A stretch of DNA of 64,000 bases from a virus: the IMG/VR virus record IMGVR_UViG_3300020377_000001, positions 1 through 64,000 of that record; one strand, 5' to 3'. The notes beneath the pieces were generated by a model that saw nothing but the letters and a program-made list of their open reading frames with translations, did not search any database and had not been told where the DNA came from. How positions within the stretch are numbered: the stretch's first letter is position 1; each line of letters begins with the position of its first letter. Shown here piece by piece: positions 11,118-57,000 of the stretch. A program made the translations under genes and the position numbers.

Positions 11118-11585
11118 ATGAGTCGCGTAAAATCTGCGGTCAAGCAGAGAAGAGAGTACATCAAAGAACTTTTGCTCGGTTACGTCCCAGATAGGACGAT
11201 TGCAAGAAAGTGCGCTGACAGGTTCAATACCAACACCGCCACGATTTTCAGCGACCTTCGCATAATCAAGAAGCAGATGTCGGAGGACGCTGCTAGACTT
11301 GCAGACGCAGAGTTTGTGGATCGTCTGAAGATGCAACACGTTAGTAGCCTTCAACGCGCCATGGCAACAGCAATATCCAAAGATAATATAAATCAGTTCA
11401 TACGTGCATCAGCGCAATACATCCAGCTAATGGATTTTAATGGCAAAAGCTCAAATCAAAAGAAGTCTTCAGAGCCCGATGGGACCGCGATTAGCACGCT
11501 CACAGATGAAGAGTTGATGGAGATGATTAAAAAGTCTGGAGGAGCGTTTGACCTATCATCTAAAGACGGAAAGAAGATACACTGA
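11118..11585 (+). CDS. Terminase small subunit (putative)
   Basis: HTH-like start, LTDEEL tail, AGGAGG RBS, coupled to TerL. Confidence 0.65.
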   Translation: MSRVKSAVKQRREYIKELLLGYVPDRTIARKCADRFNTNTATIFSDLRIIKKQMSEDAARLADAEFVDRLKMQHVSSLQRAMATAISKDNINQFIRASAQYIQLMDFNGKSSNQKKSSEPDGTAISTLTDEELMEMIKKSGGAFDLSSKDGKKIH

Positions 11586-34365: not shown

Positions 34366-34629
34366 TTGAGTTTCGAGCATATCAATTCTGGTTTAGCTAT
34401 TCTTGTCGCCGTCTGTGGCGCTGTTTGGTCAATTGGAAGCGTCTCATCGAAAGCGGACGTTGCGCTAGAGAAGGCTGCATCGTCTGAAGAGAGTATGGTT
34501 CGTCTCGATGACAAGCTAGATCGACTGATTGAAGAGGTTGGAAAGATTAAGACCAATGTCGCGGTCGTCAGAGCAAAGGTCGAATCCATCGATTCTGTCG
34601 TTACCCCTATTAAGAACTCAGAAGACTAG
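34366..34629 (+). CDS. Small TM + coiled-coil protein (holin/XhlA-like)
   Basis: N-terminal TM, RLDDKLDRL. Confidence 0.5.
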   Translation: MSFEHINSGLAILVAVCGAVWSIGSVSSKADVALEKAASSEESMVRLDDKLDRLIEEVGKIKTNVAVVRAKVESIDSVVTPIKNSED

Positions 34630-35663
34630 AGTTCTTGTATTACCTTTTTCTCTGGCCCCTTTATTCCCCGTGATATGCAATAGATAACAGGCTCAGATAT
34701 GGTTGGGTCTTCGTAGATGCCTTTATGAAGATAGCCTCCTCGAAGTTGCGTGAGAACCATCTGCAGGCCGGATTCAAGGTTTTCAAAGAACATCTCGTTG
34801 GTCTCAAAGACCTCTGTGGGAACCTTAATGATTATGCCAAAACTCTGTTGTGACACGTCCGATTCGGAGTGTGAAAACAGGGTGCTCGAAAACAACTGAA
34901 AAACACAGTTCTTGATGGACTGCGCTGAGCAGTCTGCATTGATTGATACTTTCCCAAACGAAACGCAGCCGGGCTTGAGCATAATTGTCTCGAGGTCAGA
35001 CTTGTCCATACACTCGAAGTCGCTGGGTGTTTGGGTTATGGTATTAAACTCCTCAAACAGTCCCGCTACGTGCTCGTTGGCGAGACTCCACATGTTCTTC
35101 ATTGTCGCTTTTGGTATGACATTCTTGATTCTGCGATTGTTTAGAATCATCAAAGGTGAGATTTGTCCATCGCCGCACATTTTGCAAACAGCCTGCAGGA
35201 GGTCTTTGGCGTTCTTTTTAACAATCGTACTAGAGCACTCAAGCTTTCTGGGGCTCGTAATAATCAAGCCCACAGAGTCCGGCTTTTTTCTTCCCTCAGA
35301 CATGAACTTCTTGGACAGTTCAATTAAGGGTATTGCGCCACCCGTGCCAGTGCCACCACCGGCTCCAGCGCAAACGATGATTCTGTCAACGTCCCCAAAG
35401 AACTCCTCCATCATCAACTCAATCATGTCTTCGGAGTCGTTGACGGCCTGCTCTGCAATCTTAGGCTGTTTGCCAGCACCGTCTTCAGACTTCCCAACTA
35501 TAAGCCTTCTTTCGATGCCTACATTTAATGCTTCCAGATCGATTCTGGCAGTATTCAGGTAAATGCTCTCGTAGCCCAGGTCTGCAAAGGATTTTGCTAT
35601 CTTGCATCCCCCTTGACCAATGCCAACAAACCCAACATTGAATGATCTTTTTGGCGTACCCAT
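34626..35663 (-). CDS. Tubulin/FtsZ-family GTPase (PhuZ/TubZ-like)
   Basis: VGIGQGGCKIA, LNT..D, GAGK, GAGGGTGTGG signature, T7 loop MDKSD; AAGGAG RBS. Confidence 0.9.
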   Translation of the reverse strand: MGTPKRSFNVGFVGIGQGGCKIAKSFADLGYESIYLNTARIDLEALNVGIERRLIVGKSEDGAGKQPKIAEQAVNDSEDMIELMMEEFFGDVDRIIVCAGAGGGTGTGGAIPLIELSKKFMSEGRKKPDSVGLIITSPRKLECSSTIVKKNAKDLLQAVCKMCGDGQISPLMILNNRRIKNVIPKATMKNMWSLANEHVAGLFEEFNTITQTPSDFECMDKSDLETIMLKPGCVSFGKVSINADCSAQSIKNCVFQLFSSTLFSHSESDVSQQSFGIIIKVPTEVFETNEMFFENLESGLQMVLTQLRGGYLHKGIYEDPTISEPVIYCISRGIKGPEKKVIQEL

Positions 35664-35665
35664 GA

Positions 35666-36997
35666 CTACTCCTTCGAACTTGGCTCTATATCTCTTCCCA
35701 CATAAACTTTCCCGTTGTAAACACATTTACCGTCGTTGATGTGCAGCAACTGCATATGGTTTACGCCATCAGAGTCTCGAATCACTAAGCCGATCCCGTG
35801 TTGCCAATCTTGGTCTGGTCTACCCTTCCCAGTTGGAACAAGTCTCGGTTTGACAGAGCACAGGGTGCCAGGACTCATGGCTGAAATTGTGACATGCTCA
35901 TCCTGCCCATTCTTTCCTGGGACAGTTCTTGTCGAGCAGGCGATCTCTCTTCGGTGTATGTGTCCAACAATTTGACTGTGTCTTGCTCCAGACAAAATTG
36001 AGCTGACCGTCTGCCCCCCTTTGGGTCTAACGATGTGTCCGTGATGAACTTTAATATCGTTAAATAGCCAGTAGACCTTCCCGTATGGCTTAATGTAAGA
36101 AATGCCCAGCTTGTCGAGGCAAAGCAATCTTTCCACCGATAGCATTGGTGGACCCAGAATGTCATCGATTGGACGAAGTACTGCAGCCTCTTGAACATTC
36201 TGCAGTTGCTTCGACAGCCTAAGCTCGTGATTGCCTTCGCAGAGAGTGACCTTGCCGTTGGTTGTACCTACTAAAACCCTTAGCCATTCACCGAGTTCTT
36301 GTAGCGCTGGCTGGATCAGGTACTTTGCGTCCGGTTCAAGAGGAAAGGTGGATAACCCTCCAAAGTCGATCATGTCACCAAGTAACACGATTTCGTCAGG
36401 CTGAATGTCCGCGCTGATTTGCGTTACGACATCACATGCTCGCCGATCGTGCATTGGTATTAGCTCTTGAATCACTTTACCTGTTTTCTCGCAGGTTCTC
36501 TTGACTGACCTAAAACCATGCTGGCTGTCGGGCACAATCAAGGCAATTTTTTTAGCATTCTTTACATGCTTTTTACCTTTTGGCTTTTTTAGGTTTCTAC
36601 CGAGCGTTATGGGCTTGATCCAGTAGTCTGGTTTGCGCTCTAGCCAAGCCTTGACCTGCCACATTTCTGTTGGACCTTCTTTGCCCATCTGGTCCCATTT
36701 GTTGACCACCTTTTTTACAACAACCCACTCGTCGAGGTCCACATTCGCCTCGATCATGAGTTGCTCTACGCTTCTAACACCCTTTCCAGTCAGAACTCGA
36801 CGTCCCGATTCTGAGGTTTCTTGAATCTTGTTGTTTTCAGAAAAAAGTAGTCCGTTCTGTTTTGCCCACTTTAAAATCCGATGAAGCCTGCTTCTGCTAA
36901 TGCCTAAGGATTCAGCAGCAGCGGTCTTGCTGCCGTGCTCCTCAACCGCTTTTTTTATTTGCTTGAGCTCATCGGGAGAGTTTGTTGGTTTTCGCAT
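35666..36997 (-). CDS. HTH-fused calcineurin-like metallophosphoesterase
   Basis: TAAAESLGISRSRLHR HTH; PDSQH, LGDMID, GNHE, HHGH, GHIHR. Confidence 0.85.
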   Translation of the reverse strand: MRKPTNSPDELKQIKKAVEEHGSKTAAAESLGISRSRLHRILKWAKQNGLLFSENNKIQETSESGRRVLTGKGVRSVEQLMIEANVDLDEWVVVKKVVNKWDQMGKEGPTEMWQVKAWLERKPDYWIKPITLGRNLKKPKGKKHVKNAKKIALIVPDSQHGFRSVKRTCEKTGKVIQELIPMHDRRACDVVTQISADIQPDEIVLLGDMIDFGGLSTFPLEPDAKYLIQPALQELGEWLRVLVGTTNGKVTLCEGNHELRLSKQLQNVQEAAVLRPIDDILGPPMLSVERLLCLDKLGISYIKPYGKVYWLFNDIKVHHGHIVRPKGGQTVSSILSGARHSQIVGHIHRREIACSTRTVPGKNGQDEHVTISAMSPGTLCSVKPRLVPTGKGRPDQDWQHGIGLVIRDSDGVNHMQLLHINDGKCVYNGKVYVGRDIEPSSKE

Positions 36998-37131
36998 ACA
37001 CCCTCCGCGTATCTGTATGTAAATGTAGGTGATCGAACCAATGCTTTGCAAAGTGTTCTCTATGAATTAGTTGAAACATCGTGTAAAAGTGGTCTTAATC
37101 TTGGTAGACGCCACATATAAAGGAGCTTAAG

Positions 37132-38534: not shown

Positions 38535-40793
38535 ATGTCTGGCAACGTGTTGCCTCTGCAGCAGAGGCCGCCAAGGGGCACAATTACGCTAATAGGTCCT
38601 GACCAAGACATGATTGATGTCGCAGATGCAGGCAGCGGATTAACCTGCGTGCACGTTCTGTCTGAATCGGTGGACACTTCGCGTGTCTGCACAGATGCGT
38701 TTGCGTTTGTTGATGAGTATTTGGACCATGGTTGGTTGGATTCGCAGATTAAGTCTGATCCCAGGTGGAATGAGAAGAGATATAAGCACGGTCATTCATC
38801 AAATTCGATTCATTTAAAAAGCCCCATTCCCTCTACGCCAAACTCGTTGTCTGTCTCCATACTCGTAAACCTAGAAAAGGGATCGGCCGAAGGCGTAAGA
38901 TGTATAGAGTCCATCAAAGAGAGGACCATCTATCCATACAGAAACCTAGTTATTACATGCGATTCGTCTGATGACCTTGTTTACTCCACAATAAAGGCAC
39001 AGGAGGACAGGCGAGACCTTGTTGAGGAGATAAGCAGCAACATATCAGACCTCGACAGGATGATAGTCGGCGTTAGCACCGCGTTTTCAAGGGGCGCAGA
39101 TATGGTCTGCGTAGTGGATGAGGGATGCTTGGTCACCCATGGGTGGCTAACAAGGATGGTTCAGTGTCAATACCTCACGGAGTCTTCTGCTGTTTCGCCA
39201 ATGATGAACGAGTCGTTTGACATGCCTCTACCAATGGGGTTGTCACCAAAGTGCGGATCTCACAACCTGTCTGGACCTCATAGCTATCTAGATGTCGCTC
39301 GGGGTCTTTCCGTTATCAATCCAGACTTCCCCCCTCTAACGATGATGTCTGACGACTGCGTAATGTTCACCGCAGAGTCTTGGTCTGAGAACGGATTTAG
39401 CGTTGGAGAGACAAATCGTTGGACGGCCCTGGCGTCGATGTGGGCATCAATCAGAGAGTCGGGCGGAAGGTGTCTTGTTGCAGATCATTCTTATGTATTC
39501 AAAAGGAATGACCCCAAGACGACAAGAATAGGCAATCGCTTGAGGGCTGGGCTTTCTTCGCTGTATTCAGACCTTATAGACTCCGATAGCAAGTGGTCCG
39601 CCACATCGACCACAAACAGGCATAGGGCTCATGTCTCCAGCGTCAAGCCCGCATCTGTGCCTGTGGCAATGACCATGACAAGCATTGGACACTGGGGCGG
39701 CATCATCGCGCCGTTGAGGATTTGTCAGGAGCTAAACGAGCTCGGCTTCTCGGCGTCTGCCGCATACTTGAAGACTTCTGGTGAAGCCTCGATGCCAAGA
39801 GAGTGGTGCCTTCCGTTCACTCCAAGAAGATTTAACACGATGCAGTCTCTCGAGGATTGGAAAGTCTCTATGGGGTGGGATCGAGGGTTTGTTGTTTCGT
39901 CTCATGTTTTCTCTGCATCAATAACTGAATCTGTGAAGTCTGTCTGCCCTGAGGTTTCCACTGTTTCGTTTTGGCAGGATCGAGAAGACCTGTTCGACGG
40001 GTCGGAAAGAAACACTCAGATGAAAAAGTCTCATGTGGATCGATTTCTGGAGTCTGACTTTCATGTCTTTAACTCGTCTTGGGTCTCGGATTCCGTTTTG
40101 ACCGACTTTGGCTCCCTTGGCAAGAATGCGACGATACCGATAGGTGTAGATACCTTAATGTTCAGGCCGAGCGTTCGACAGAAGGGTGGTAAGGTCAGAA
40201 TTATATCCATGTGGAGACCTCACACGTCCAGAAGGGGACACGAGCACCTAATGGCTCTTTATAGGCTCATAAGGCGTGAGTACGGAAACACTGTGTCGTT
40301 AGAGGTGTATGGTGAGAAATCCCCAGGACATGAAATACACTCGATCGTTGATTGTCATCACGGGTGGTTAAACAGGCGTGAACTGTCTCAGGTTGTGCCG
40401 TCTTGCGACATTGTTGTGGAGCCAAGCCAGTTCCAGGGCTTTGGCATGCCTGGGCTAGAGGCGATGTCCTCTGGGTGTGCCTTGGTCAGCACCGATAATA
40501 TGGGAATACATGAGTATGGTGTTCATGGGGAGAACTGTCTCATAGGGGGTTCGATAGAGGCAATGCATGGTCACACTAAAAGGCTGATCGATGATTCGGT
40601 CCTTCGAGAGTCTATTAGCCACAATGGAAGGGTACGCGCACTCAACTTCGACTGGGCAACGGTCGGCGCCAGATGGGGCATGTTTTTGCTTTCTGCAGAC
40701 AAAGACTTGGGCAGATCCTATAGGCAGTCAACCCAGAGGATACTTGATAATATAAGCAAGGTCCGAGAGAAGTGGACCGGCCCTGCTGAGTAA
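38535..40793 (+). CDS. Bifunctional GT-A (GT2-like) + GT-B (GT4-like) glycosyltransferase
   Basis: CLVTHGWLTRM..VSP; GVDT..F; PSQFQGFGMPGLEAMSSG..VSTDNMG. Confidence 0.8.
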   Translation: MSGNVLPLQQRPPRGTITLIGPDQDMIDVADAGSGLTCVHVLSESVDTSRVCTDAFAFVDEYLDHGWLDSQIKSDPRWNEKRYKHGHSSNSIHLKSPIPSTPNSLSVSILVNLEKGSAEGVRCIESIKERTIYPYRNLVITCDSSDDLVYSTIKAQEDRRDLVEEISSNISDLDRMIVGVSTAFSRGADMVCVVDEGCLVTHGWLTRMVQCQYLTESSAVSPMMNESFDMPLPMGLSPKCGSHNLSGPHSYLDVARGLSVINPDFPPLTMMSDDCVMFTAESWSENGFSVGETNRWTALASMWASIRESGGRCLVADHSYVFKRNDPKTTRIGNRLRAGLSSLYSDLIDSDSKWSATSTTNRHRAHVSSVKPASVPVAMTMTSIGHWGGIIAPLRICQELNELGFSASAAYLKTSGEASMPREWCLPFTPRRFNTMQSLEDWKVSMGWDRGFVVSSHVFSASITESVKSVCPEVSTVSFWQDREDLFDGSERNTQMKKSHVDRFLESDFHVFNSSWVSDSVLTDFGSLGKNATIPIGVDTLMFRPSVRQKGGKVRIISMWRPHTSRRGHEHLMALYRLIRREYGNTVSLEVYGEKSPGHEIHSIVDCHHGWLNRRELSQVVPSCDIVVEPSQFQGFGMPGLEAMSSGCALVSTDNMGIHEYGVHGENCLIGGSIEAMHGHTKRLIDDSVLRESISHNGRVRALNFDWATVGARWGMFLLSADKDLGRSYRQSTQRILDNISKVREKWTGPAE

Positions 40794-42214: not shown

Positions 42215-42775
42215 ATGGATGCATCTAGAACATCGAAAAACATAAGAATTACGATTCAAGATAAGATCGGCAACGATGTGACGGTGGATGGCATAACCTA
42301 CCCAATTTATCACAATTACGTTTTCGCTGACCCCGATGACAAGAGGAGTCCAGACGCCAGGACGCAAAGCCCAGCCTGGGTTGAGAGCACATTTGTCTCA
42401 CAAACCGCAGGAAGGAGGGGCTTTTCTCTGCTTCAGCTTGACGTGTTTTCTAAGGTTGGGGGAGAGTCTGAAGACGACAACGATCCCTTTGGAATGCGTG
42501 CGGAGGACATTGCAGACGCTCTAGAGGATCTTTTTTCTGGATTAAATAATCAGGGACGACACAAAAGTCGATTTCATGTGAAAAACTATCAAAACCCCTT
42601 TAATCCTATAGACACAGGGGTTTGCATGTTATGCAAGAACTCTCGAGGAGACCTCGGTATGGTTGAAGAGAGAAGAATAAGTAGTAGCGAAGAAGGTCTT
42701 CGCAGGATTACAATAACGATGAGATTCCAGTTGCTGCAAGATGCTTCTGGTCCGGCAGCGTTTTACATAGACTAG
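42215..42775 (+). CDS. Putative tail terminator
   Basis: LQLDVF..AEDIADAL pattern; immediately upstream of tail tube. Confidence 0.55.
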   Translation: MDASRTSKNIRITIQDKIGNDVTVDGITYPIYHNYVFADPDDKRSPDARTQSPAWVESTFVSQTAGRRGFSLLQLDVFSKVGGESEDDNDPFGMRAEDIADALEDLFSGLNNQGRHKSRFHVKNYQNPFNPIDTGVCMLCKNSRGDLGMVEERRISSSEEGLRRITITMRFQLLQDASGPAAFYID

Positions 42776-42786
42776 GAGGATAGAGC

Positions 42787-43446
42787 ATGCCAATTTCAGG
42801 AAAACAGTCCGTTGGTTCAGTATCGAACCTTTTTCAAGGCTACTGGAGCCAAGTTCAATTCAGACCAGGGAACACGGCCGCCGGTAACGCCTACAAGTAT
42901 TTAGGTGTCGTTCAAGAGGGCGCTCTGGAGATTTCTCGTGAGGATGCGGAGTACATGGGTACAACCTTCCCTCGAGTTATGGAGGTTATCGCTCCGTCTC
43001 AAGCAGGCATGTCGTTCTCAGGTCAAATGGATGAGCTTCACCATCGAAACCTTCAGGTCTCTGCAGGCATTGGCATGGCTCCAACCTCTAAGGCGATTGC
43101 AGACGACAATGATCCAGCAACTCTTGACGATCCAGGCGATTACATCTTCCCTGGCGCAAGCTGTGCGTTTGACAACGCCTTCGGCACTCTTAAGTGCGCT
43201 CGAGAGCGATGCGACGGATTCAAGATGGAGGCAGTTCTTTGGAAGGCTCTTTCAACTGGCTCAATTTCAATCGGTGGCAACGACAACGTAATCGGAACGC
43301 CTGTTGAGTTTACCGCACTTGATGATAGCAATGGCGAATATCACAGCACTCAAGCTCCTAACAACGGTCAAGAGCACTTTGGCTCTCTGGCGCCTCTTGG
43401 TTACCTATATGCTCCGCTTCCTGCAGCAGGCAGTGATGTGGTCTAA
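42787..43446 (+). CDS. Major tail (tube) protein
   Basis: Strong AGGAGG RBS; LGVVQEG, PVEFTAL motifs; position. Confidence 0.7.
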   Translation: MPISGKQSVGSVSNLFQGYWSQVQFRPGNTAAGNAYKYLGVVQEGALEISREDAEYMGTTFPRVMEVIAPSQAGMSFSGQMDELHHRNLQVSAGIGMAPTSKAIADDNDPATLDDPGDYIFPGASCAFDNAFGTLKCARERCDGFKMEAVLWKALSTGSISIGGNDNVIGTPVEFTALDDSNGEYHSTQAPNNGQEHFGSLAPLGYLYAPLPAAGSDVV

Positions 43447-43901
43447 GAGTTAGCTTTCATAAAGCTACTCTTCATCGTAGAGACGTTCTCCCTATATGCT
43501 CTCTGGTCGGCCACGTCGAGGTTGACCAGAGAGTACCTTCTTCCAGCCACCTTTCGTTTCCATCCATAAATACGTTGAGCTCGTCTCTCTCTTTCAATCT
43601 GTTTCGGATCTGCGCTCACGTTTGGTCGTGACCGATTTTCAATCTGAGGTGACGGCGGTGGAGCGTCTGATCCGTCTCCAACAAAAGACTTTGCAACCTG
43701 ATTGATTGGATAGAATAGGGAGGTTGCCCATCCTTGGACATCGGAGGCAAATTCTGCACGAGTTCGACGGCGCATATATGCGTCTGGCGTCATGCCGCAC
43801 TTGTGCGCGACAACGCTAAGAAGCGAATCGACCGATGGAAGATCTACACCCCCGTCAGAATTAGAGTCGGACTCTACTCCCCCGCTGCCAGGGGCACGAG
43901 G
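43443..43901 (-). CDS. Tail assembly chaperone T portion (-1 frame, GT fusion ~329 aa)
   Basis: -1 frame from the slippery site is open and joins MTPDAY ORF to TAG at 43443. Confidence 0.7.
   Translation of the reverse strand, partial: PRAPGSGGVESDSNSDGGVDLPSVDSLLSVVAHKCGMTPDAYMRRRTRAEFASDVQGWATSLFYPINQVAKSFVGDGSDAPPPSPQIENRSRPNVSADPKQIERERRAQRIYGWKRKVAGRRYSLVNLDVADQRAYRENVSTMKSSFMKANS
43445..43472. terminator. Hairpin at convergent tube/chaperone junction
   Basis: AAGAG-T-TAGCTTT-CAT-AAAGCTA-CTCTT. Confidence 0.4.
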
Positions 43902-44431
43902 TTTCCCAGGGCGGCCACATACTCGTTCAACTCAAAGGCTTTGTTGATGATATAGGTGGATTGTACGAGACTGATTTCGTCACGTATATAAGCCCTGACC
44001 TCTTTGCATCCCACATAAATATGGTCTTCATCTCGCTCTTCTTCGGCCCCATCTGGTATAATTCCAGCATCCAATAGGATTTTTCTGTTTGTGGGGGTGT
44101 CTAGAAGGATGACTGCACTCTTTACCATCGCTGGCGACAACTGCTTTCCCAGCACAGTTCTTGCCGCAGACCAAAGCTCTGGTCCCTTCTCAGCAACCTT
44201 CGGTATGATGTCTAAGGCTGAAGTGTCGGTGGTGTCGGCGTTGATAGAAAGTATTTCACCAAGAGGCTTAAATACCGATCCCACGTCCAATTCAGACAAT
44301 GCTTCAAGCAGGGCGGTCTCTTGGTGCATTTTTGATGTCGATAAGGTAAAAGTACTTGTACCTACAGGCACCTCGGTCTTCTTTGGTCGAAGGTGCTTAA
44401 AGGCGTCTGTGGCTCTTTTTTTGGTGGCCAT
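43874..44431 (-). CDS. Tail assembly chaperone G (inverted orientation)
   Basis: Between tube and tape-measure genes; G GGA AAC slippery site near 3' end; AGGAG RBS. Confidence 0.75.
   Translation of the reverse strand: MATKKRATDAFKHLRPKKTEVPVGTSTFTLSTSKMHQETALLEALSELDVGSVFKPLGEILSINADTTDTSALDIIPKVAEKGPELWSAARTVLGKQLSPAMVKSAVILLDTPTNRKILLDAGIIPDGAEEERDEDHIYVGCKEVRAYIRDEISLVQSTYIINKAFELNEYVAALGNLVPLAAGE
43901..43907 (-). promoter_or_regulatory. -1 programmed frameshift site G GGA AAC
   Basis: In-phase X XXY YYZ, 6-nt spacer, then CCCCTG-GCAG-CGGGGG hairpin. Confidence 0.8.
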
Positions 44432-44509
44432 GTTTTGCTCCTAGTGAAGTGTGTGGTTTAGTCTTAGCATATACTGGGGGCGCTGTGAATCAACTTTGTG
44501 AGGTTTTCT

Positions 44510-47500
44510 ATGGCAAGTAGAACTAATAACTTGACCCTTGTTTTGGGTGTCGCGGATAGAAACTTTTCCGCAGGTCTTAAGAAGGCTCAGACTAACCTCG
44601 CGACGTTTGCGGCTGGATTTAGCCGCGCATTCGGAAAGAAGAAAAGGGGTGGTGTCGACGGGATGGCGTCGAGCATCCTTAATCTTGCCACCGCCATCGA
44701 GAGGCTCAATGCCGCAGTTGCGAAAAGCCCTCTTCATGGATTTTCTGCGAAGGTGAGAAGAACATCGGTTGCAATGAACGGCGCCCGAAAGGCCACTCGC
44801 AGGCTCAATCGTAGGCTTTCTAGAACTCGTGCTGCTGCCGCTGCTGCAGGAAAGGGCGCAGACAGGGCGGCGCTTAGCATGGGTAGACTAAGGAAGTCTA
44901 CAGCAAGAACCGCAGAGGCGATTCGGAGTACTGCCGTCAATCTCAAGTTTATGATTGCCACAATGGTTGGTGGAGCAGCGGCAATAGGGGTCGTTAAGTT
45001 TGGCGCCGACTTTGAGAAGAGGCTTGGTGAAATAGACACCCTTCTCGATGCGAACACGGTCAGCATACAAAGGTATCAAGAGCAGTTAATCAAGCTGTCC
45101 CAGTCTACGCCAAAAACACTTATGGACCTGTCTGGTGCACTCTATCAGATTATATCTGCAGGCATACCAGCGGTCGAGGGCGCAGGTGGCGCATTCGACA
45201 TATTGACACAATCACAGAAGCTTGCTGTTGGTTCGATTTCAGAAACAAAGCAGTCGGCAGACCTTCTAATCACAACGATGGCTGCATTCAAGCACGAGAA
45301 CCTTGGTTCCGCAGAGGCAGCAGACAAGCTCACAGCGATCTATCAAAAGGGTAGGACGACTATACCTCAACTTAGTAAGGCGTTTGGTAGGGCTGCTCCG
45401 ATCGCGGCGCAATTTGGCGTTAGTCTAGATGAGTTGGGTGGGTTGTTGATTGGGTTGACCCGCGCAGGTCTGAACACAAACGAGGCCGTGACAGGCATTC
45501 GAGCAATGATGAGCAGTCTTGCAAAGCCAACCAATAAAACTCGCGAGTTGCTTGAGTTGTTGAATATTGAGTTTGGTGAAAACGCGATCCAGACTAAGGG
45601 ATTTAGCGGAGTCTTGGAAGATCTGATAGCAAAGACCGGTGGATCGGTTGAAGTCCTCTCACAACTGTTCCCAAACATTCGAGCGTTGCTTCCGGCGGTT
45701 ATTGCTGCTGGTGATGGGTTTGGTGGGTTTCAGGCTAATGTTGATAGCGTCACCGACTCTATCGGTGCGTCAGATCAGGCTGTACTTAAGCAGCAGAAGA
45801 GGTTCTTCTTCGCCGCTGAGTTGCTAAAATCAAATTTTCAGGGCGTCATTCAACAGATTGCTGAAAAGACGCTGCCTGGGCTTACGATTATGCTCTCTCG
45901 ATTGGGTGGATTTCTATCAGATAACAGGGAAGAGATTGTATCGTTTGGTGTCCAGGCGATGAAATTTTTTGGCATGATTGGTTCTGCTGGGGGGCAGGCT
46001 CTTTTCAAGACGCTGAAGACTATTATTGAATTCCTGAGTAGCGGGTTCGGAAAAGCAGTCGCGTTGATTGCGGTTGTGAGCAAGCTTGGGCTCGTCTTCT
46101 TTGGCATGGGTAAGGCCGCTGTGTTGTCTCTGGGTAAAGCCTTACATTTATTTTTCCCCGCTGTGTTCACTGAGGCGGGGGCTTTGGCTGCGGGCGCATT
46201 CAATGGCGCATTCGAGAGTGCCTCCAACTCAAGGATGGGTCGTTTTTTTGGTGGTGCTGGCCCGTTTATAAGGGGAATCCTTGGGTTTCTCGGGCCGCTT
46301 GCCATTGGCGCGATGATTGCCAAGGCATTATTTGACGGATTTAGTGCGGCTGCAGATGAGGAGGCGGCGCAGGCTGGGGAAGAGCTCGCAAGAAAGCTCA
46401 AAGAGGCTGTTCAGAAGGCTGTTTCGGAAGCAGCCGCAGAGTTTAGAAGGCTGCAAGGTATTGACGCCAAGGATGTGGAGAAGACTCAGGAAAAAGTCGA
46501 CCGAGGCACGCTTTTTGTAGATGAAGGTGAGGGCATCGGCAAAGCAAGGACACTTCAAAAAGACCTTGACCTTATGCTTAGAAGCGCAATCAACAAAAGG
46601 AGGATGGACTTAATTGAGGCAAAGAAGAAAGAACTGAAGGTCACCGTCCTCACCGCAAAGCAGGCTGGAGAGGTAGAGAACGCACTGCAGGAGGAGAATG
46701 CACAAATAAGGACTCGGGTTGTTGCAGAGCATGCAGAGAAGCATATGAAAATCATTGAGGCTAGAGCCGAAAAGGATGAAAAGCTGTCTAAAGCGGTTAC
46801 AGAGAACCTAAATAAAGACATAGAACGCCAAAACAAACTCCTGCAAGACGCGAAGTCTAAACAGGAAAAGGGTTTTGATGCGGCGACAACCCATGTTGGC
46901 AGGCAGGTGGCAAAAATGTTTACAGGCTCAAGGGAAGAAATGCTGGGTATGGCTCGACGCTTTAGAACGATTCTGGCAGGGGAGACCGAAGCAGAGCGAG
47001 CAGAGGCTGAAAAGGTTATCAATGAATTCATTGAGAAGATAAGTAAGTTGGAGAGTGATAGGGCAGCCAAAGACCAAGACGTAAAAAATCAAGCTAAATT
47101 CATTGCAGGTATGAATGCGGAACGGCGAAGTGGAGTAGATTCGGTAACCGGAAAACCGTTTACCGAAGAAAGCGCTAGGCGATTTGATAAAGGTATAGAG
47201 AGAAACATTGAATTCCAAAAAACGCAACAAGAAGACTTAAGAGTCTTAGAGACCATGTTGGCTAAAAGGCGGCAGGAGTTTGCGGCTGAATTTCCTAGAT
47301 TGCAGGGATCCTTTCTTAAAATGGCTAATGCATTGGCTCAACAAGTTATGCCAGATCAGATTGAGAAAACTACCGCTCAGATCACAGAATCGTTTGGTGA
47401 ACAGTTCACTCAGATCGCCAAGCAGATCTCTCAAGATACCGATTTTGGAAAAATCGATCTTATTGACGAAAGTACCGTTAACAAGGTTGCTGAAGCAAGG

Positions 47501-50500
47501 GCAGAACTGAAAAAGCTTGAAACAATTAAGGCAGCGATTCAGGGAGGGGATTTTACAGGTTTTTTCACAACATCATACTGGGCAAGCCTGGGCAAAGGGG
47601 TTCGAGAACTGGGTCGTGACATAATAAACCTTTCATTTATTCCAGAGCGATTAAGGCAGCTCGGACAGATAGGCGCAAGAGAAGCTGCGAAGACGAAGAC
47701 AAAAGATAAGCGTGATAAGGATAAAGAGCCTAAGGTCAGAAAGCCGCCTAAAGCAAATTTTGATTCTCTCCTTAACAGACTTCGCAAGCAAAGGATTCGC
47801 CTAGAGGACAAGCTCCAGAAGATGGCGATTAAGACGCTCAAGATTGCCAATCAGCGTTTTCAGGTTGAGTCAAAGATCAATGCAACAGTTAAGGATCGGT
47901 CAGACACCGGCGAATTCAACGCTGAAAACAAAAGGCTTCTACAGGAGGCTTTAAAGATTCGTCAAGATGCGGACATGAAGTCTCTAAACGATCGTCATAA
48001 AGCAGAGATGGACAACCTTAATCGTGAGATTGAAACAAGGAGAAAGGCGCACGAAGAGCAGAGGCGGAAGAATAGGGAAGACTTTGAGAAGGAGACCAAG
48101 AAGCGGTTCGGTCGTTCTGCCAAAAACAAGGTCATCAGGGGTGATATCGAAAATGAATTGAGGCTGATTGACGATGCGACAGAGTCTGAGATCAGTGAGG
48201 CGGCAAAGAAAAGAATCAAGGGTCGTATGAAGGAAACAGACCCAAAAAAGCAGGAAGAGGCGCTTCAAGTCCTGTTGGAAAAGCGCAGGTCTATGCTTGT
48301 TGATGAAGGCAAGCTTGGTGAGGAGATTGCTAAAGAGCGCAGGGCTCGAGAGGAAAAATTTCAGAGCGAAAGAAGGCTTAAAGAGTTACAGCATCATCAA
48401 CAGCAGGAGAAGTTGGAAAAAGACTTTTTTAAGAGGGGGCAAGATCACTTAAAGCGGCAGGAGTCTGAAAGAAAGGCGGCCAGGGATCGAGCGTTTGACG
48501 CTTTAAAGAGGAACCTTGAACTCTCGGGTGGAGATTTCCAAGTAGGCGCATTGAAGGCGCAGCAGGAGCTTCAAAGGGAGTCTAATCATCTTGCCGAGCA
48601 GCATAGGTCAATTCAGGACCGACTTAATCAGATATTAAAAAATCGGACAAGGATGGATGGTTTGCATAACGCAGACCTGAAAGAGCAGAACGAGCTTCTT
48701 AGACAGCAGGCTGAGATAAGGAGAAAGCAGGCCGAGACGAAGCGGGCGCAGGAGTTTGCCCAGAAGTTTGGGGCAGGGGCGGGTGGTCAGCAAGGGTCTG
48801 TTATGCGTCTAGCGAGGCGCGGACTCGAGTTTCTTGGCGTCCCATCCTTCGATACGAAAGATTCAGCGAAGATTTTCGATCAAGCTACGGCAATGTCTGA
48901 GGCTTTTAAGAACGAAATCGCTGCAGCGTCCAAGGATCCTGAAACGAAGAAGAGGCTCGAAGCAATGGGTCTTTCTGCAGACCCCAAGAAGCGGGCAGCG
49001 TTTGCCAGAAAGGAGGCGACCGGCTCGGCGATTGAAATGGGTCCTGGCATGGAAAAGGAGATGCGGGCGTTTGCTCTCGCCGAGAAGTTCACAGGTAGCG
49101 ACATTGCGAAAGCGGGACTGGATGTCGCCATCCCAGGCATGGGCGCCCAAATTGACAAGTTAAAGCAAGAGCTTTTCGACAATGAGCCTCACATGAAGAT
49201 GTTTGAGGCTGCTGCTGAGGCCTCAGCAGAGTTTGCCAAGGGTAACGTGGGCGGACTGTTCGAGATGGTAAACAAGTTTGCCCAGAAGTTCTCTGATGAG
49301 TTGGTGAATCAGGTCTCTGGTGTCGCAACCAAGCTTGGTAGCTTGATAGGTGATTCGTTTGGAAAGTTTGCCGGAGATGTTTTCGGTAAGACTGTGGGTC
49401 CACTTTTGAACGCATCCTTGTCGTTCTTTGCAGAACATGTTGCAGGCAACATAGCGAGTGCGCTCGGCTCCTCGATGTCTATCATGACGGGTGGTGTCGC
49501 GGACGCATTTGGCTCTGTGAGCTCAGAGGACCGTCTCCAGTCCGTACAGATGGAGGCCAGGGATGCTGCGAAGAGAAACCTTTCTGAGGGCAATGAGGAT
49601 GTCAGGAGCGCCGCAGGGAAGCGTGTGGCTGAATTAGATCGAGAGATTGCCTCAACTACAGACGCACAGAAAAAGCAAGACCTTATCAATCAGCGCAGAG
49701 AGGTTCTTGCCACCATGGAGGAGCAACTTCTCGAAAACAAAAGGCAGTTTGCAGATTCGGAGCGTCAAAGAGTAGAAGACGAGCGTGAAAACAACCCGAT
49801 GAATCAGCTAGACAATGCCTTTAGCAGATCTATTGAAATGGCAGACAAGTTGGTTTTCGATCTTCCAAACTTGGCGTCTGCGGCAATCGACGGACTGATT
49901 CAAAACTTGCCTGTCTTGTTGGATAAGATGGCCGAGGGTCTGATGAGGACGGTTGACGCTATCGCTGACAAGATTCCCACTCTGCTGACCACCTTCGTCA
50001 CATCAATCATAAACGTCATCCCCAAGCTTGCTTCAACATTAGGAAAGCTTATTCCAGCTTTGATCAAGGGGATCCTCAAGGCGCTAACAGAGATATTGAA
50101 AAACCTTGGTTCAATTATAGGACCCCTGGTGGAGATGGCTGTTACAGCCATAATCGATAGTCTAATAGAGCTCATAACTCAGTTGCCAGACATAGCGGTT
50201 GCTTTGGTTGAGGGCGTCATTACCGCTGTGGAGGTGCTTGCCGAGCAGGCGCCAAGGTTAATCTCTGCGCTTATTACAGCCTTGCCAATGTTGACGCTGG
50301 CTTTAATTTCAGCCATTCCAAGAATACTGGATGCGATAATTATGGGTCTTCCAGACATCTTTGTTGCCTTCGGCAGGGGCATGTTCAGGGCGGCCATAGA
50401 CTTTGGAAAGATGATCGGAAGGACGTTCACAAGGTTCGCAAGCTTTCAGAAGATTACCGACTCACCGGCTGGGCTTGGTGCGGGTCTCGGAGCCGCGATA

Positions 50501-51073
50501 GGGTTTGGTGCCTCTTTCATTCCTGGGATTGGGCTTGGTGCTACCGCTTTAAGTATCGGGGGCGCACTTTTAGGTGGAGGCATTGGCTCACTCTTTAAGC
50601 ATGATGGTGCTGTCGTTAAGAAAGGTCAAAGAAACCCTGCGATGGCATCACTTATGAGAGGTCTCGGTGCGGCACAGTATGCGGATGGTGGCATGGTGGA
50701 AATGATGAGTAGATCTCTTTCGTCAAACCCTCTTAGCGGGATGAAGCGTGCTGTCGATGATGTCCCAGCAGTTCTTCAGGCTGGCGAGGCTGTCTTAAAT
50801 CGTCAGGCGACAGCGGTCCTTGGGGAGGACACAATCAACATGCTTAACGCTGGAGGTGCGCTCCAGGCAGGAGACACGAGCGTGACCCTCAACATCGTCC
50901 CGAATGCTAATGGTGTTAAGAATGCTGCGGCAGCACTGCTTCCTATGTTAATCGGTGGTGTTAACGCAGAAGTTGACCGTCCAGGATCTAAGCTAAGGTC
51001 AGCTATTAACTCGTCATCTGGTCGTCCTATTGGTAGTATGGGCGTGCCCATGTCGAAGAGAATTAAAGTATAG
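44510..51073 (+). CDS. Tape measure protein (2187 aa)
   Basis: TP901-like core (DFEKRLGEI..), Ala/Gly helical repeats, C-terminal DGG..DDVPAVLQAGEAVLN. Confidence 0.92.
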   Translation: MASRTNNLTLVLGVADRNFSAGLKKAQTNLATFAAGFSRAFGKKKRGGVDGMASSILNLATAIERLNAAVAKSPLHGFSAKVRRTSVAMNGARKATRRLNRRLSRTRAAAAAAGKGADRAALSMGRLRKSTARTAEAIRSTAVNLKFMIATMVGGAAAIGVVKFGADFEKRLGEIDTLLDANTVSIQRYQEQLIKLSQSTPKTLMDLSGALYQIISAGIPAVEGAGGAFDILTQSQKLAVGSISETKQSADLLITTMAAFKHENLGSAEAADKLTAIYQKGRTTIPQLSKAFGRAAPIAAQFGVSLDELGGLLIGLTRAGLNTNEAVTGIRAMMSSLAKPTNKTRELLELLNIEFGENAIQTKGFSGVLEDLIAKTGGSVEVLSQLFPNIRALLPAVIAAGDGFGGFQANVDSVTDSIGASDQAVLKQQKRFFFAAELLKSNFQGVIQQIAEKTLPGLTIMLSRLGGFLSDNREEIVSFGVQAMKFFGMIGSAGGQALFKTLKTIIEFLSSGFGKAVALIAVVSKLGLVFFGMGKAAVLSLGKALHLFFPAVFTEAGALAAGAFNGAFESASNSRMGRFFGGAGPFIRGILGFLGPLAIGAMIAKALFDGFSAAADEEAAQAGEELARKLKEAVQKAVSEAAAEFRRLQGIDAKDVEKTQEKVDRGTLFVDEGEGIGKARTLQKDLDLMLRSAINKRRMDLIEAKKKELKVTVLTAKQAGEVENALQEENAQIRTRVVAEHAEKHMKIIEARAEKDEKLSKAVTENLNKDIERQNKLLQDAKSKQEKGFDAATTHVGRQVAKMFTGSREEMLGMARRFRTILAGETEAERAEAEKVINEFIEKISKLESDRAAKDQDVKNQAKFIAGMNAERRSGVDSVTGKPFTEESARRFDKGIERNIEFQKTQQEDLRVLETMLAKRRQEFAAEFPRLQGSFLKMANALAQQVMPDQIEKTTAQITESFGEQFTQIAKQISQDTDFGKIDLIDESTVNKVAEARAELKKLETIKAAIQGGDFTGFFTTSYWASLGKGVRELGRDIINLSFIPERLRQLGQIGAREAAKTKTKDKRDKDKEPKVRKPPKANFDSLLNRLRKQRIRLEDKLQKMAIKTLKIANQRFQVESKINATVKDRSDTGEFNAENKRLLQEALKIRQDADMKSLNDRHKAEMDNLNREIETRRKAHEEQRRKNREDFEKETKKRFGRSAKNKVIRGDIENELRLIDDATESEISEAAKKRIKGRMKETDPKKQEEALQVLLEKRRSMLVDEGKLGEEIAKERRAREEKFQSERRLKELQHHQQQEKLEKDFFKRGQDHLKRQESERKAARDRAFDALKRNLELSGGDFQVGALKAQQELQRESNHLAEQHRSIQDRLNQILKNRTRMDGLHNADLKEQNELLRQQAEIRRKQAETKRAQEFAQKFGAGAGGQQGSVMRLARRGLEFLGVPSFDTKDSAKIFDQATAMSEAFKNEIAAASKDPETKKRLEAMGLSADPKKRAAFARKEATGSAIEMGPGMEKEMRAFALAEKFTGSDIAKAGLDVAIPGMGAQIDKLKQELFDNEPHMKMFEAAAEASAEFAKGNVGGLFEMVNKFAQKFSDELVNQVSGVATKLGSLIGDSFGKFAGDVFGKTVGPLLNASLSFFAEHVAGNIASALGSSMSIMTGGVADAFGSVSSEDRLQSVQMEARDAAKRNLSEGNEDVRSAAGKRVAELDREIASTTDAQKKQDLINQRREVLATMEEQLLENKRQFADSERQRVEDERENNPMNQLDNAFSRSIEMADKLVFDLPNLASAAIDGLIQNLPVLLDKMAEGLMRTVDAIADKIPTLLTTFVTSIINVIPKLASTLGKLIPALIKGILKALTEILKNLGSIIGPLVEMAVTAIIDSLIELITQLPDIAVALVEGVITAVEVLAEQAPRLISALITALPMLTLALISAIPRILDAIIMGLPDIFVAFGRGMFRAAIDFGKMIGRTFTRFASFQKITDSPAGLGAGLGAAIGFGASFIPGIGLGATALSIGGALLGGGIGSLFKHDGAVVKKGQRNPAMASLMRGLGAAQYADGGMVEMMSRSLSSNPLSGMKRAVDDVPAVLQAGEAVLNRQATAVLGEDTINMLNAGGALQAGDTSVTLNIVPNANGVKNAAAALLPMLIGGVNAEVDRPGSKLRSAINSSSGRPIGSMGVPMSKRIKV

Positions 51074-51082
51074 GAGCAAGGC

Positions 51083-54000
51083 GTGAAATACAGCAGAAGA
51101 ATACTTATCATCCCAGACGCCGACATTACCCCTGATGTTGTCAAAAGCGCCAGTGTGGTTAGCGATGCAGGTGGTTCTAGTGTTTTAGCTGACGCTCAAA
51201 AGAAGAGGTCTGTGTCTCAGCCTATCAGGGGGGCAAGGTACCGTCATTACCAGAGAGAAAACATTATAGACAACGTCGCTGCAGGTAGAGCTCGATCTGT
51301 GACGATGGTCTTAAACAGGCTCGGCGACAGTGCGGGATCGTCTGACACAAAGCTGTTTAGGGATGATAGCATTCAGCAGTATGTGTCTAGACCAAGGGAG
51401 GCGCACCAGTTTGATCCATCTACCGCTTTTGGGGCAAGGGGTGAAGGTGAGCTCGTGCCAAGGACAAGCGGCGAGCCCTCTGCGGACTTCAAGGGAAACG
51501 CATTTATTACTTCGTCTGGAGGCGTCGGTGGCGCAAGGTTTTCTTGGAACACTGCGTCTGAGTCAAGGGGCGGACACAAGGTTCCCGGAGACACTCAGTT
51601 TCGCCAGTCCCCAAACGTGTTTGGCAAGTATGCGTCTGTCTTGCACACGACCGAGGGCTCTAGCAGTCCTGGCGGAGCCAACCTGACGTCAGACTCTTCA
51701 TTCAGCTCTGCAGATCCGAATTGCAGGTACCTTTGTCGGCCAAAGGCAGTGGAGCTCGAGAACGGGGAGATTCTGTGTTTTTATTTATCTACAAGCCTGC
51801 CGCCTCATCACTGGCAACTGTCCTCCAATAGAAGCTTGACAGAAAACACTGTGTCTACAAAAAGCCCCGCCCTCAAATGCAAGGCGTTTGTTCAAAGGAG
51901 AAACAGTGACGGTGTTTGGCAGCCGCCGATTGAATTAACTAACGACTCACAGTACCCAGGACTGTTACTTTCATCCCATGATGAATATTCCACAGAAGAG
52001 ATCGCTTTCATTGACGCGGTCATCGAGCCCGTTACTGGAGATGTTATTTGTTTCATCGGAAAAAACACTCCAGAAGTGCAGAGTGAAGACCTTTTTGTAA
52101 GGTCCGTTTATAACGGATCCCACAATTCGGACGCATCCATAAGCGTATCATCGTTTGGCAGCGCAAAGGTGGCACGGTCAAGGTCGATTGTGACTATCAC
52201 CTCAACGGACAACGGGATGTCTTGGCAGAAACGCTCTGAGTCATCCATGGAGTCAGATGGTGCTGGTGTCGGAACATCTGCTGTAACCTCTGGCGTACCT
52301 GGCATGCCGTCTTCAGACATTGGACTAATTCTGGGCGGCAGTTGCGAGATCATGGATAGTGGTCGAATAGTTTTGTCGCTTGTGACTGGCGAGGCAGTTT
52401 ACTTAGTTAGTACTGATGATCTGGGCTTCACTTTCAGATGCAGCCTGGCTCGAGAGATTGCTGTTGGAAGCGATGGTATGTCAGCAGAGGGCATATCGGC
52501 CAGACCACCTGAAGAGGGGCTGAAGGATGGAGACACCTACATAGTTGATAGTGTAGAGATGAAATCCATACACGGGATCTTTAACACAAACCCTGCCCCT
52601 CGCGGAGTCTTTCAAAACTTTAATATGACGTCTCCAGACGGCAGGCATTTCTACGCAGGCGACAACGTGTCGCCACTCGGATGGGATCTTGTCGTCGAGG
52701 AGATGAGGAATGAGCCTCCAACGCTCGAAGAGATTGAGGCAAACCCAGGCGCGATTGGCAAGCTTAGAAACGCAATATATTCTAAAGTATACGCAATCGG
52801 AGACAATCCAACCGGCGCATGGTCCGAGTTTGCTGGGTGCTTTACCATCTGTTGCTTTAATAATGCGGACACGACCAGTTTTGACAACGGAAGGGTTTCT
52901 TTTGGGTTCTGTGAGTACCTTGGCGTATCCCTGGGGACAACCTTTGGATCCGGTGGGAATGTAACAGTTAACAGGATCGCGAACGGAGGCTGGCACAGGG
53001 CTATACCAATAAGTGTGTCAAGCCCAAACGGTGACTCGGATACCGACTTTCCTGCAGCACAGGCCCAGCCATGGGACTGCACTGTCGATGCAGGGTTTAG
53101 TACTGATGGACTGCCATGGAGGTGGTTTATCGTCAGACCTGGGGGTGGTTTTGCGTTTAGGCGTGACGCTGCGGATACAAGTTTTGGTACTACTGCGATT
53201 GATGATAGAACCGGCTTTGCCACCCCGACACCGGGGAGGTACTTCTTCGTAAAAAACGGCAAATACGCTGGACGTAGAATTTTTATTGAGGGAGAAGCGG
53301 AGCGGGACGAGTCTCTCGAGGAGGTTAGGGAGGTCCCAACCCAGCTGACAGCGGGGGAGCGGTACCTTGTCGGACCATTTGGATCGGGGGACTTTGGTAA
53401 CAAGTTCGGCGCAATCGCACAATATGATGGCTCCTCTTGGTCTTACAGCATAAACAACACCAGATTCACTCCTGATGGTTATGGAATCGTTATTGTTGGA
53501 AACTCGCCTTTCGACACTGACGATTTTGCCACCAGGGAAAACCAGATTGCTTTGCTGGCCACCGGATTTACTCGTGATGCTACGATAGACGACCTTGGTG
53601 GGGTCCAACTCATGGAGACGTGTGTCGGTTCATGGTCTAGGTTTTCGGACCCCGTTGACGGTCAGGTTATTGTGGTTTCCAATGTGCAGGGGCAGCCGGA
53701 GCCAGCCATGGGCAGCACTAACTCATACAGAGACCCGTCTGAATCTAGGACAAGGGCCCAGGCTTCTGAGGTCGCCTCTACAATTCCAATGGTTTGCGTT
53801 GACGGTGTTTGGGTGGAGGATGATACGCTCGGAGAGTTTGCTGCAAGGGGCGGCGAAATAGCTGTATACGATGAGAGCGCGAGCAAGTTTGTTTTTGAAA
53901 AGCCTTTGGAGGGACAGTTTGTAAGAATTAAGGGAGAGGGTCTTTACAAGTACGACGCAGGCAGGAATGTTTGGAATTTGGTTGAAAATGAAGAGTCTGA

Positions 54001-57000
54001 CGTTGACTTGGCCTTGTCTAGGAGGACCAAGTGCCGTGAGACGATTGCAAACACGTCGATGACGAAGTCTGATAGCGGTCAAGTTTTCTTTGCAGTTTCT
54101 TTCACCGACTTCAATGATACGTCTCCAATAAACTCGATGACCAACATCTACATACAGGACGAACTGCTTGGAACAGACATATCTTCCAGAAACATAACTG
54201 GAGACGCGACGTTTGTGTATCCGTTCTATATGGAGGACCCAAGAGAGATCTCCGTAGAATATGCGTCTAGAAGACTTGAGGTGTTTGAGACCACAGACGG
54301 CGAGTCCTGTGTGCTTGTTGACGGGTGGGTTAACAGCGTAAACGTAGAAGACAGGATGGCCTATGCATCAAACAAGGCTGGGTATGATGGAGAGCTAAGG
54401 TATAACGTCAGGTATGGATCTGTGGTTGGTGTTGATGAAGAGCTCCCATACGGTCCATGTGTAATAGAGCCGTGTATTGTGATTCGTCCAGACGGGTTTC
54501 TTCAAATTTATGGGGCTTCACACAACTGGCTGCCTCCGCAATATGAGGGGTTGCAGAATGACACTAATTTGAACTCAGGATACATATCCTCTGTGTCTGG
54601 AACAAAGGGCGGGTCTGGCTTTGAGAGCATGCATGCTGCGGTTATTAACGGAATCGCTTCCGCCACAATAGACGTTTCGTCGTCCGTTGGAAGCATGCAT
54701 CCGTCAGTTAACTCTGTTACAGAAAAGAATGCGGTTGCTACCGACTTGGAATACAGGGATGACCAATTTGCAAGTGCGGCCATAGCAATAAGCGAGAACG
54801 GTCTCAAAGAGGATGACTCTGTATCTGGGTCAAACTCTGACTCTTTGACAAACAATCACCTTCGCATCAAGAGTCACATGAGGAGGTTTGACAGCAGAAG
54901 GGCAACCGCTGCCTTTATGTGTAGCCCAATATCGAGCGGGTTGGGCAAGGGGTTGATCTCTCCAGGCAAGATCACGATTCGGGGCGCCAACGCAATTTCA
55001 TACAGGCTCTCTTTCATGTGGGGGCTTTTCCCAGAGACTGTTTCGAGCTACAGGACTGCAAGCGTTACGCCGTCGCACTACGGAGCCGCAACAACATGTG
55101 TTGCCCACTCTAGAACAGAAAAGCTTTCTTCTGATGTTTTGGGTGGAATTGATTTCGTTGTCAGGGACAGGGTGACAAGCCCCCCTAACAAGATTTCTGT
55201 TGGTGACTTGTTTTTAGTAAAGCCAAACGCGACAGGCGTTTTTCTTGGCAAAGATAATAACATTGCGTGTTATGAGGTTAAGTCTGACGGGACTCTGGGG
55301 TGGACATTCAGAGACAGGTTTTCCTCAGACCAAAAGCTAATCATATCTGGCGCCCCGTTCGGGCTAAATAATCAACACGCTGTTTTCAAGTCTACAATCA
55401 CCTCCGCGAGCTCTGGTGCGAATATCTCAAGTTGGGTTCTGACGTCCACATACGCACTCTACGATCTGGAAGGGGGCGTATACAACAACGTGCAGATTCA
55501 GCATGATGGTTTTAGTCAGGAGGTTTATTGGTACGCGGATGGAGCGGGGAGGGCCACACAACTTCCAGCGTCTCAATTTGCTGGTTTCATAGGGGGGTAT
55601 AGCGGACTCGATGCGATATCGACCGGCAACGAGATGCTGGTCGTTAGCAGTAAGATCTATCAGCAGTCTTTGGGCAATGCGACCCCGATGAGAATACGAA
55701 TCCGCCCCCAGCTTGGAGAGACGATACCTTCTGCTTTTTGCTCTGTTCTTGTTTCGTCTTCAGTTGGCGGTGAGGAGGTTCTGGTTTACTTGAATGGCAA
55801 GTTCTTGTTTTCAGGCGTCACCAGGGCGGGTGTTTTTAACCCACACACCACAGGGATACATGTTGATGTCAACGACACCTCAAGCGTTTGCCCTGTTTCT
55901 CTGACTGGCATTGAGTCTGGTCTTGAGGTGTTTTTAAGGAGCGGTACATCGGGGGTAGTCCCATCTTCTGCGACCGGGGACTCCTTTGTGTCTGGAGAGG
56001 TTGAGGTTATTAAATACTTTGGTGGTGTGCGTAGGTTTTCACGTCCACTTTCTGGCTACGATCAGGTTGATGAGCTCGGCTCGCCCTTCCCTATGAGGAT
56101 GGCGGACAGTTCTTCTATTACCTCTAACAGGTCATTTTATTGGCATCCAATCCGAGAGAATCTTGGTCGTACTGATGCCGCTTCGAGTGTTGGCGGACAC
56201 TGCCACTGGGAAGAAACAGTCATGTCTGACGGTAAATACATAAACCATCCGTCAATAGAGCAAGCGTCACCAGACATATTGGACGCATACCAGAGGAGAT
56301 TTCGTCTGATCGGTGGAAGGTATTACGCCCTGAACTTTTTCGGAGACAGTTCACCAACGTCTGCAGGCTTTGACGTGATAAAGGGCAAGGATGGCAGCTC
56401 TCACTCTGGTGGCATATCGATTGTGGATGCTGGCAACCCCTTCGGAGACGATATGGTTGACCTCTTTCAGTCGAATGTGTCTCAGAGCAGACCTCAGTTG
56501 TCAGGAGGCTCAGACTTCACCATCAGCGACATAAAACAGAGCAACAGGTTTGCGATTGAGGCACCCTCTGGCGCAAACGAGACAGACGTTAAGACTTTCG
56601 ACACCTTCTCTGTGGGAGGCACAGTAAGAACAATCACAGTCGGACCCACTCACAATCAGGCGATTGTGCCTGGAACTATAAGCTCAATAGTAATTGTCGA
56701 GGTTACCTCGAGTAGTCCATATTTTGCGGGATATGCTTTAGACGGAACATCTTCAAGAGTTCAAATTACAGGAATACTGAAGAGCTCTGCTGTTAATGCA
56801 GGGGTGCTTGCATCCCAAATAAAGCGTCGGGACGCCTTGAGACTTACAGAGACAGGACCTCTTTTTGAAATTGCAGAGGCGTTTGCTTTTGGTGATAGTG
56901 TGTTCTCTTTAATTGTAGACAAGGCTTATGTCGCTCTATCACTTGGTGGAGTTACTAGTCAAGCCCTGGCTCCAAATGTTCTAAATCTTACTACTACGCC

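Follow-up and report, generated by a model that had tools for sequence, protein, structure and literature searches.

How is one to interpret two open reading frames (ORFs) that run against the direction of both of their neighbours, at the very place where the tail genes of a phage are expected to share one strand? The question is raised by the IMG/VR virus record IMGVR_UViG_3300020377_000001, a sequence of 75,141 bp with direct terminal repeats, whose first 64 kb (positions 1 to 64,000, referred to here as the window) were analysed in this work. Between the tail tube gene and the tape measure gene of this virus lie two minus-strand ORFs, which a preliminary description had taken for a tail assembly chaperone cassette of the lambda G/GT type. 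The arrangement of tube, G, T and tape measure genes on one strand is among the most conserved in tailed phages, and annotators use it to find both the chaperones and their frameshifts. We consider it very likely that the two ORFs are this phage's lambda-type G/GT tail assembly chaperone, placed on a leftward transcription unit of its own, and that this is an old trait of the lineage to which the phage belongs.

The gene pair between the tube and tape measure genes

The slot can be recognized by its flanks. The gene on one side (42787-43446, plus strand) encodes a protein of 219 aa, which has no Pfam or PHROG match and is assigned as the tail tube (major tail) protein on the basis of an AlphaFold model and Foldseek comparisons. 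It has 48 homologues; the model, made from 39 homologues (pLDDT 61, pTM 0.57), matched mostly siphophage tail tube proteins and Hcp, with Douge (8zdj_S, E 1.6e-4) as the best match and the SPR tube, Bxb1 and YSD1 among the others. A PDB sequence search with the tube profile returned only spurious helical designs. The gene on the other side (44510-51073, plus strand) begins at ATG 44510, preceded by a GAGG Shine-Dalgarno sequence (the ORF lister places the start at GTG 44498, which gives 2191 aa), and its product matches the Pfam family PF10145 (PhageMin_Tail) with E 3.8e-27. Given the tube-fold matches of one neighbour and the PF10145 match of the other, the slot is the classical tube/tape-measure junction, and the G/T pair is its sole gene content.

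The first ORF, G (43874-44431, minus strand), encodes 185 aa in the zero frame; it is preceded by a GGAG Shine-Dalgarno sequence at 44441-44438 and ends with a TAG stop at 43876-43874. It contains a slippery heptamer of the X_XXY_YYZ form, G_GGA_AAC (43901-43907, minus strand), in the phase CTG GGA AAC. The preliminary description had the first ORF end at these three codons, but the heptamer sits 8 codons before the G stop; its other elements, namely the two minus-strand ORFs, their products of 185 and 329 aa, the open -1 frame and the hairpin 6 nt downstream, were all recovered in our analysis. This stem-loop (43879-43894, minus strand) consists of a CCCCTG/CGGGGG stem and a GCAG loop; the six pairs of the stem, which runs from 43894 to 43879, comprise five G-C and one G-U, and a longer alternative pairing exists. 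The T part, i.e. the extension in the -1 frame (43443-43907, minus strand), runs to a TAG stop at 43445-43443 and together with residues 1-177 of G forms the 329-aa GT, whose junction peptide is predicted from the -1 frame reading to be ...ALGNPRAPGSGG... (...ALGN-PRAPG...).

The pattern of nucleotide substitutions follows these frames. In the comparison with the related locus L007, whose G is 91% identical, G itself shows 86 substitutions, 66 of them in third codon positions when the zero frame is read. Of the 97 substitutions beyond the G stop, 50 are in third positions when the -1 frame is read, so that the excess of third-position substitutions switches from the zero to the -1 frame at the heptamer. 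Two plus-strand ORFs in the same region (44091-44444 and 43734-43955) were considered and rejected, as both the substitution pattern and the conservation within the family fit the minus-strand frames.

Related loci were collected from viral contigs, scanned once with G and once with the tube, and from metagenome contigs, scanned once with the tube. A G homologue is present in 29 loci, fetched via the tube gene and the G alignment, and these form the set for the counts of orientation and frameshift signals given below; the loci are kin, and the counts are not counts of independent events. The heptamer occurs in phase in all 29 (G_GGA_AAC in 22 and G_GGA_AAA in 7), 8-24 codons before the G stop, and in each of these loci the -1 frame stays open for 140-199 codons before it meets a stop. 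Elsewhere in these G genes GGA makes up 24% of the glycine codons and G makes up 25% of the third bases, whereas at the site each is found in 27 of 27 distinct sequences; other in-phase heptamers of the X_XXY_YYZ form number 13 in the 6251 codons of these genes. In 20 of 26 distinct loci, the folding of the 45-nt stretch behind the heptamer is better than that of 95% of the control windows taken within the same cassette (median rank 0.023), and the stems begin 4-7 nt after the heptamer, with sequences and loop lengths that vary between lineages. The arrangement of the cassette is far beyond chance, and the conserved pattern is what a functional -1 frameshift site predicts; from it we infer that the pair would be expressed by frameshifting. 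In such a scenario, most ribosomes would translate G and then stop, while a minority would slip back by one base at G_GGA_AAC, aided by the hairpin downstream, and read on in the -1 frame to produce GT. By analogy with lambda, G and GT could then cover the very long tape measure protein and bring in the tube subunits.

The orientation of the pair is as constant as its frameshift signals. Without exception, the 29 loci have G and the tube gene on opposite strands, and in all 25 loci that reach the tape measure gene, a homologue of that gene adjoins G and is likewise on the other strand. Relative to the window, the tube proteins of these loci are 42% to 95% identical, and for G the identity falls to 31% (the latter measured in four relatives from viral contigs). 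The inversion is old and fixed; it characterizes a broad clade of uncultured marine siphovirus-like phages and is not an event in this genome.

Identity of the G and T products

The assignment of G and T as chaperones is drawn from their position and their frameshift architecture, which is the usual way in which this very diverse class of proteins is recognized. The assignment to the lambda type made in the preliminary description is borne out by its hallmarks: the pair sits between the tube and tape measure genes, its -1 slippery site is conserved and followed by a hairpin, and its T part lacks a start of its own. The genes of lambda gpG/gpGT are found at the same place, flanked by those for the major tail (tube) and tape measure proteins, their first ORF also has a G_GGA_AAx heptamer (G_GGA_AAG in lambda) close to its 3' end, from which a short product and a long -1 fusion arise, their T part also lacks its own start, and the proteins are of similar size. 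In contrast, the cassette described here is antisense to the tube and tape measure genes, whereas lambda V, G, T and H are co-oriented; furthermore, its G has no detectable similarity to the Pfam family Phage_TAC_2, is longer (185 vs. 140 aa) and contains a long helical hairpin. Frameshifted tail assembly chaperone genes are reportedly conserved among long-tailed phages, as Xu et al. are said to have described in Mol Cell in 2004. The chaperones of one actinobacteriophage, the Arthrobacter phage Kitkat, are weak Foldseek matches in our searches, with both the short and the long product (E 0.16-0.17, TM 0.3-0.4); in actinobacteriophages G_GGA_AAx slippery sites are usual for the tail assembly chaperones, and the genes, unlike the pair studied here, are co-oriented with their neighbours.

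Several results weigh against the reading proposed above, and some of them concern the identity of the proteins. Neither G nor T has a sequence match in Pfam, PHROG or PDB, G having been used both alone and as a 60-member family (its whole family comprises 66 representative proteins). PDB sequence searches with the G profile retrieved only spurious helical designs, and no profile match was obtained between G and PF06894 (Phage_TAC_2). A comparison of G with lambda G by hhalign, made with a shallow alignment of the latter whose rows are all at least 87% identical, gave a probability of 0.3% and a non-significant match of 17 columns over the N-terminal hairpin motif. Thus by sequence G belongs to no known chaperone family. 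The AlphaFold model of G (pLDDT 91.8, pTM 0.81) comprises an N-terminal beta hairpin followed by helices, including the long helical hairpin, and searches of the PDB with Foldseek, as well as VIA-align, found no chaperone with it, only matches to long helical hairpins. The matches in BFVD are weak (E 0.01-0.3), several of them being annotated tail assembly chaperones at E 0.035-0.17, and a structure search of the ESM Atlas gave a Phage_TAC_2 cluster at a TM of 0.45/0.56, which is likewise weak; the ESM Atlas model of the T part is poor (pLDDT 0.54) and uninformative. The solved tail assembly chaperones HK97 gp13 (2OB9), YqbN (3KLU) and Rbstp2171 (3FGX) have been grouped together (PMC9603447), and the model of G resembles them in having an N-terminal beta hairpin followed by helices. 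In an exhaustive alignment against the PDB, 3FGX, grouped with HK97 gp13 as a tail assembly chaperone in the same paper (PMC9603447), was the only match over nearly the whole G model (residues 15-185; Z 5.2, rmsd 4.3, 84 residues aligned). However, this score is common for helical proteins and in their chance range, and 2OB9 and 3KLU are absent from the match lists; judged from the models, the similarities of G to chaperones appear to lie within the noise expected for helical proteins.

The remaining points of this kind concern the transcription unit. The promoter-like element TTGATT-16-TATGCT (44493-44466, minus strand, with TTGATT at 44493-44488 and TATGCT at 44471-44466), which overlaps TGCTAAGAC, was indeed found in the divergent gap upstream of G, as the preliminary description had it, but as a candidate promoter it is weak: it matches 8 of 12 consensus positions, and a consensus promoter scan called no sites in the window. 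The candidate promoter words recur in the genome only at chance level, with no recurring promoter motif. The window also lacks a terminator between the converging genes.

The lack of any sequence match to a known chaperone family and the weak fold matches of G would be expected if the pair were accessory (moron-like) frameshifted genes lodged backwards at the junction, with the true chaperone encoded elsewhere or dispensable. However, the pair is present in 29 of the 29 relatives that have the junction, whereas morons are typically patchy in their distribution, and it possesses the -1 frameshift architecture that defines the chaperones. Moreover, nothing else lies between the tube and tape measure genes, the genome contains no second copy of G, and a tape measure protein of 2191 aa should require a chaperone. 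We therefore regard an accessory role of the pair as improbable and retain its interpretation as the G/GT chaperone.

It could also be argued that G and T are independent genes, with T translated from an ATG of its own and no ribosomal frameshift involved. In the window the second minus-strand ORF does offer such a start, at 43793, from which it runs to 43443 and would yield 116 aa. However, this ATG has no Shine-Dalgarno sequence, and over the 38 codons that precede it the -1 frame is both open and conserved (GKPxAP...LPxxDxL) in all loci. The conservation of the -1 peptide begins with its first codons (GKPxAP, followed by LPxxDxL and RTRxxF) and continues to YxWxR...YNVxNLD near its end. In five relatives the -1 frame contains no Met for 126-150 codons, which makes an independent ATG start of T impossible in these loci, and the heptamer and hairpin are conserved. 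A T gene with its own start is therefore very improbable, and a -1 extension of G, as in lambda, is the reading that we adopt.

Orientation and transcription of the cassette

The preliminary description had suggested that the cassette was "inverted in place". This does not hold for the genome under study, since all relatives down to 31% identity in G have the same orientation and no recombination scars are seen; the observation that no inverted repeats flank the cassette was correct, with none found at its borders. An error of assembly, or an invertible segment caught in one of its states, is hardly credible as the source of this orientation, as 29 independently assembled contigs from many samples show one orientation only, no recombinase gene is nearby, and the one repeat that might speak for it lies inside coding sequence and has a palindromic centre, for which chance suffices. 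Misassembly is excluded by the occurrence of the same orientation in contigs from many samples and assemblers, and a flipping segment is very unlikely because the co-oriented state was never seen. The repeat in question is an imperfect inverted one of 26 nt (43404-43429 and 44841-44866, 81% complementary), situated within the tube and tape measure coding regions and centred on CTGCAG, and it is probably due to chance.

The tube gene is not followed by G in every relative. In the loci L013 and L017 no G or tape measure homologue comes after it, and in L013 (3971-5500) a hairpin with a T run stands behind the tube homologue (51% identity), and beyond it come a small ORF, a gene for a methyltransferase (phrog_3382) and genes on the minus strand, a layout also found in L017, with no chaperone or tape measure gene within 4 kb of the tube homologue in L013. 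As unrelated genes follow the tube gene, the tail module of the L013 lineage is physically split at this point. No tube or G homologue was detectable in cultured phages when the region, G and the tube were used as queries (blastn/tblastn, 50,697 phage records), and a scan of genome contigs with the G alignment returned nothing; one tube homologue is labelled as coming from an Actinomycetota metagenome-assembled genome. In the open-access literature we found no description of a chaperone pair antisense to both the tube and the tape measure genes, and a precedent may exist elsewhere.

What we describe is a lineage-wide exception to a conserved gene order, within a known system and with no new mechanism. 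A lineage that keeps the frameshift but flips the cassette would indicate that co-transcription with the neighbouring genes is not needed for the function of the chaperone. Such a slot could be misread by annotation pipelines and frameshift predictors that rely on co-oriented neighbours or take gene names from synteny. The family also adds a group of G proteins without an existing Pfam or PHROG profile, and it provides a natural system for asking how the amounts of chaperone, tube and tape measure are balanced.

A minus-strand gene inside plus-strand neighbours needs its own promoter, and the separate transcription proposed in the preliminary description agrees with the cassette being antisense to both of its neighbours. 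The suggested antisense control of the tape measure gene does not fit the geometry of the locus, as the G/GT transcript would diverge from the tape measure gene and converge on the tube gene. The cassette unit would start in the divergent intergenic region (44432-44509, 78 bp between the G ATG at 44431 and the tape measure ATG at 44510), common to it and the tape measure operon, and would end head-on against the tube operon, so that the tube and tape measure operons would be separate units; chaperone and client might perhaps be switched on from one common control region. The length of this gap is 76-80 bp in 19 of 23 distinct loci, and such tight conservation suggests a shared control region. 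A GGAG-type Shine-Dalgarno sequence precedes G in all loci, and in 21 of 23 distinct loci the G strand carries a TGnTA element, identified by pattern match only, at 34-50 nt before the G ATG. On the other side of the gap, an extended -10-like TGnTAnnnT occurs exactly 15 nt before the tape measure ATG in 14 of the 23 distinct loci (L004, L006, L010, L018, L020 and L021 among them), again by pattern match only; the window has GAGG where these relatives have TGnTAnnnT. At this distance from the start codon the element could drive a leaderless mRNA, or it could be only a purine block resembling a Shine-Dalgarno sequence.

The opposite end of the cassette differs between relatives. In most of them 31-63 bp separate the converging tube and T stops, and a GC-rich hairpin of 9-15 bp (-16 to -27 kcal/mol), in many cases with a T run, fills this space. 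In the window, as well as in L007 and L005, the stops overlap, and no convergent hairpin is present; in the window the overlap involves positions 43444-43446 of the tube gene and 43445-43443 of T, in agreement with the convergent overlap noted in the preliminary description. The terminator at the end of the L013 tube gene fits a tube gene that closes a transcription unit. Taken with the sequence features of the intergenic regions, this suggests that the tube gene is the last of one transcription unit and the tape measure gene the first of the next, with the chaperone cassette between them. It is tempting to view this layout as a selected regulatory design rather than a neutral rearrangement, in which a bidirectional region of about 78 bp would switch on the tape measure operon and the chaperone together, a head-on bidirectional terminator (in most relatives) would insulate the heavily expressed tube unit from the low-copy tape-measure/tail-tip unit, and the tape measure mRNA of many relatives might be leaderless; we consider this idea tentative and its correctness doubtful.

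The genome contains a second divergent intergenic region, of 80 bp (37052-37131), which precedes the neck operon and is similar in size to the 78-bp gap between G and the tape measure gene. It holds TGGTAGACG, which resembles TGCTAAGAC upstream of G.

Genome context

The layout of the genome as a whole is unconventional, with several switches of the coding strand along its length. The large terminase gene lies at 11585-13042 (11.6-13.0 kb), the neck and tube genes at 37-43 kb and the tape measure and tail-tip genes at 44.5-64 kb, while the genes for an S80-like prohead protease (a weak match) and a Gp23-like major capsid protein are found downstream of the tail genes, at 67073-69716 (G000 C1; L045:6074-8716). 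With the capsid and protease genes downstream of the tail and the terminase at 11585-13042, the order of the head, neck and tail modules is unusual. The terminase shares 45-46% identity with those of Aeromonas phage 56 and the Roseobacter phages CRP-901/902. Searches of the neck genes against Pfam and PHROGs gave no matches, and a search of positions 42500-45000 against Rfam found nothing.

Directly after the tape measure gene comes an ORF of 3231 aa (51083-60778), whose sole Pfam match is a DUF2793 segment and which presumably encodes a giant tail-tip or fibre protein. The minus-strand stretch 34626-37051, immediately before the neck genes, holds a gene for a Tubulin/TubZ-like protein (PF00091, 4e-10) with a TubZ-like C-terminal domain, beside a gene for a helix-turn-helix (HTH)-metallophosphoesterase protein. 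Among the neck genes themselves, positions 38535-40793 encode a protein of 752 aa with a GT-B glycosyltransferase domain (PF13692, PF00534).

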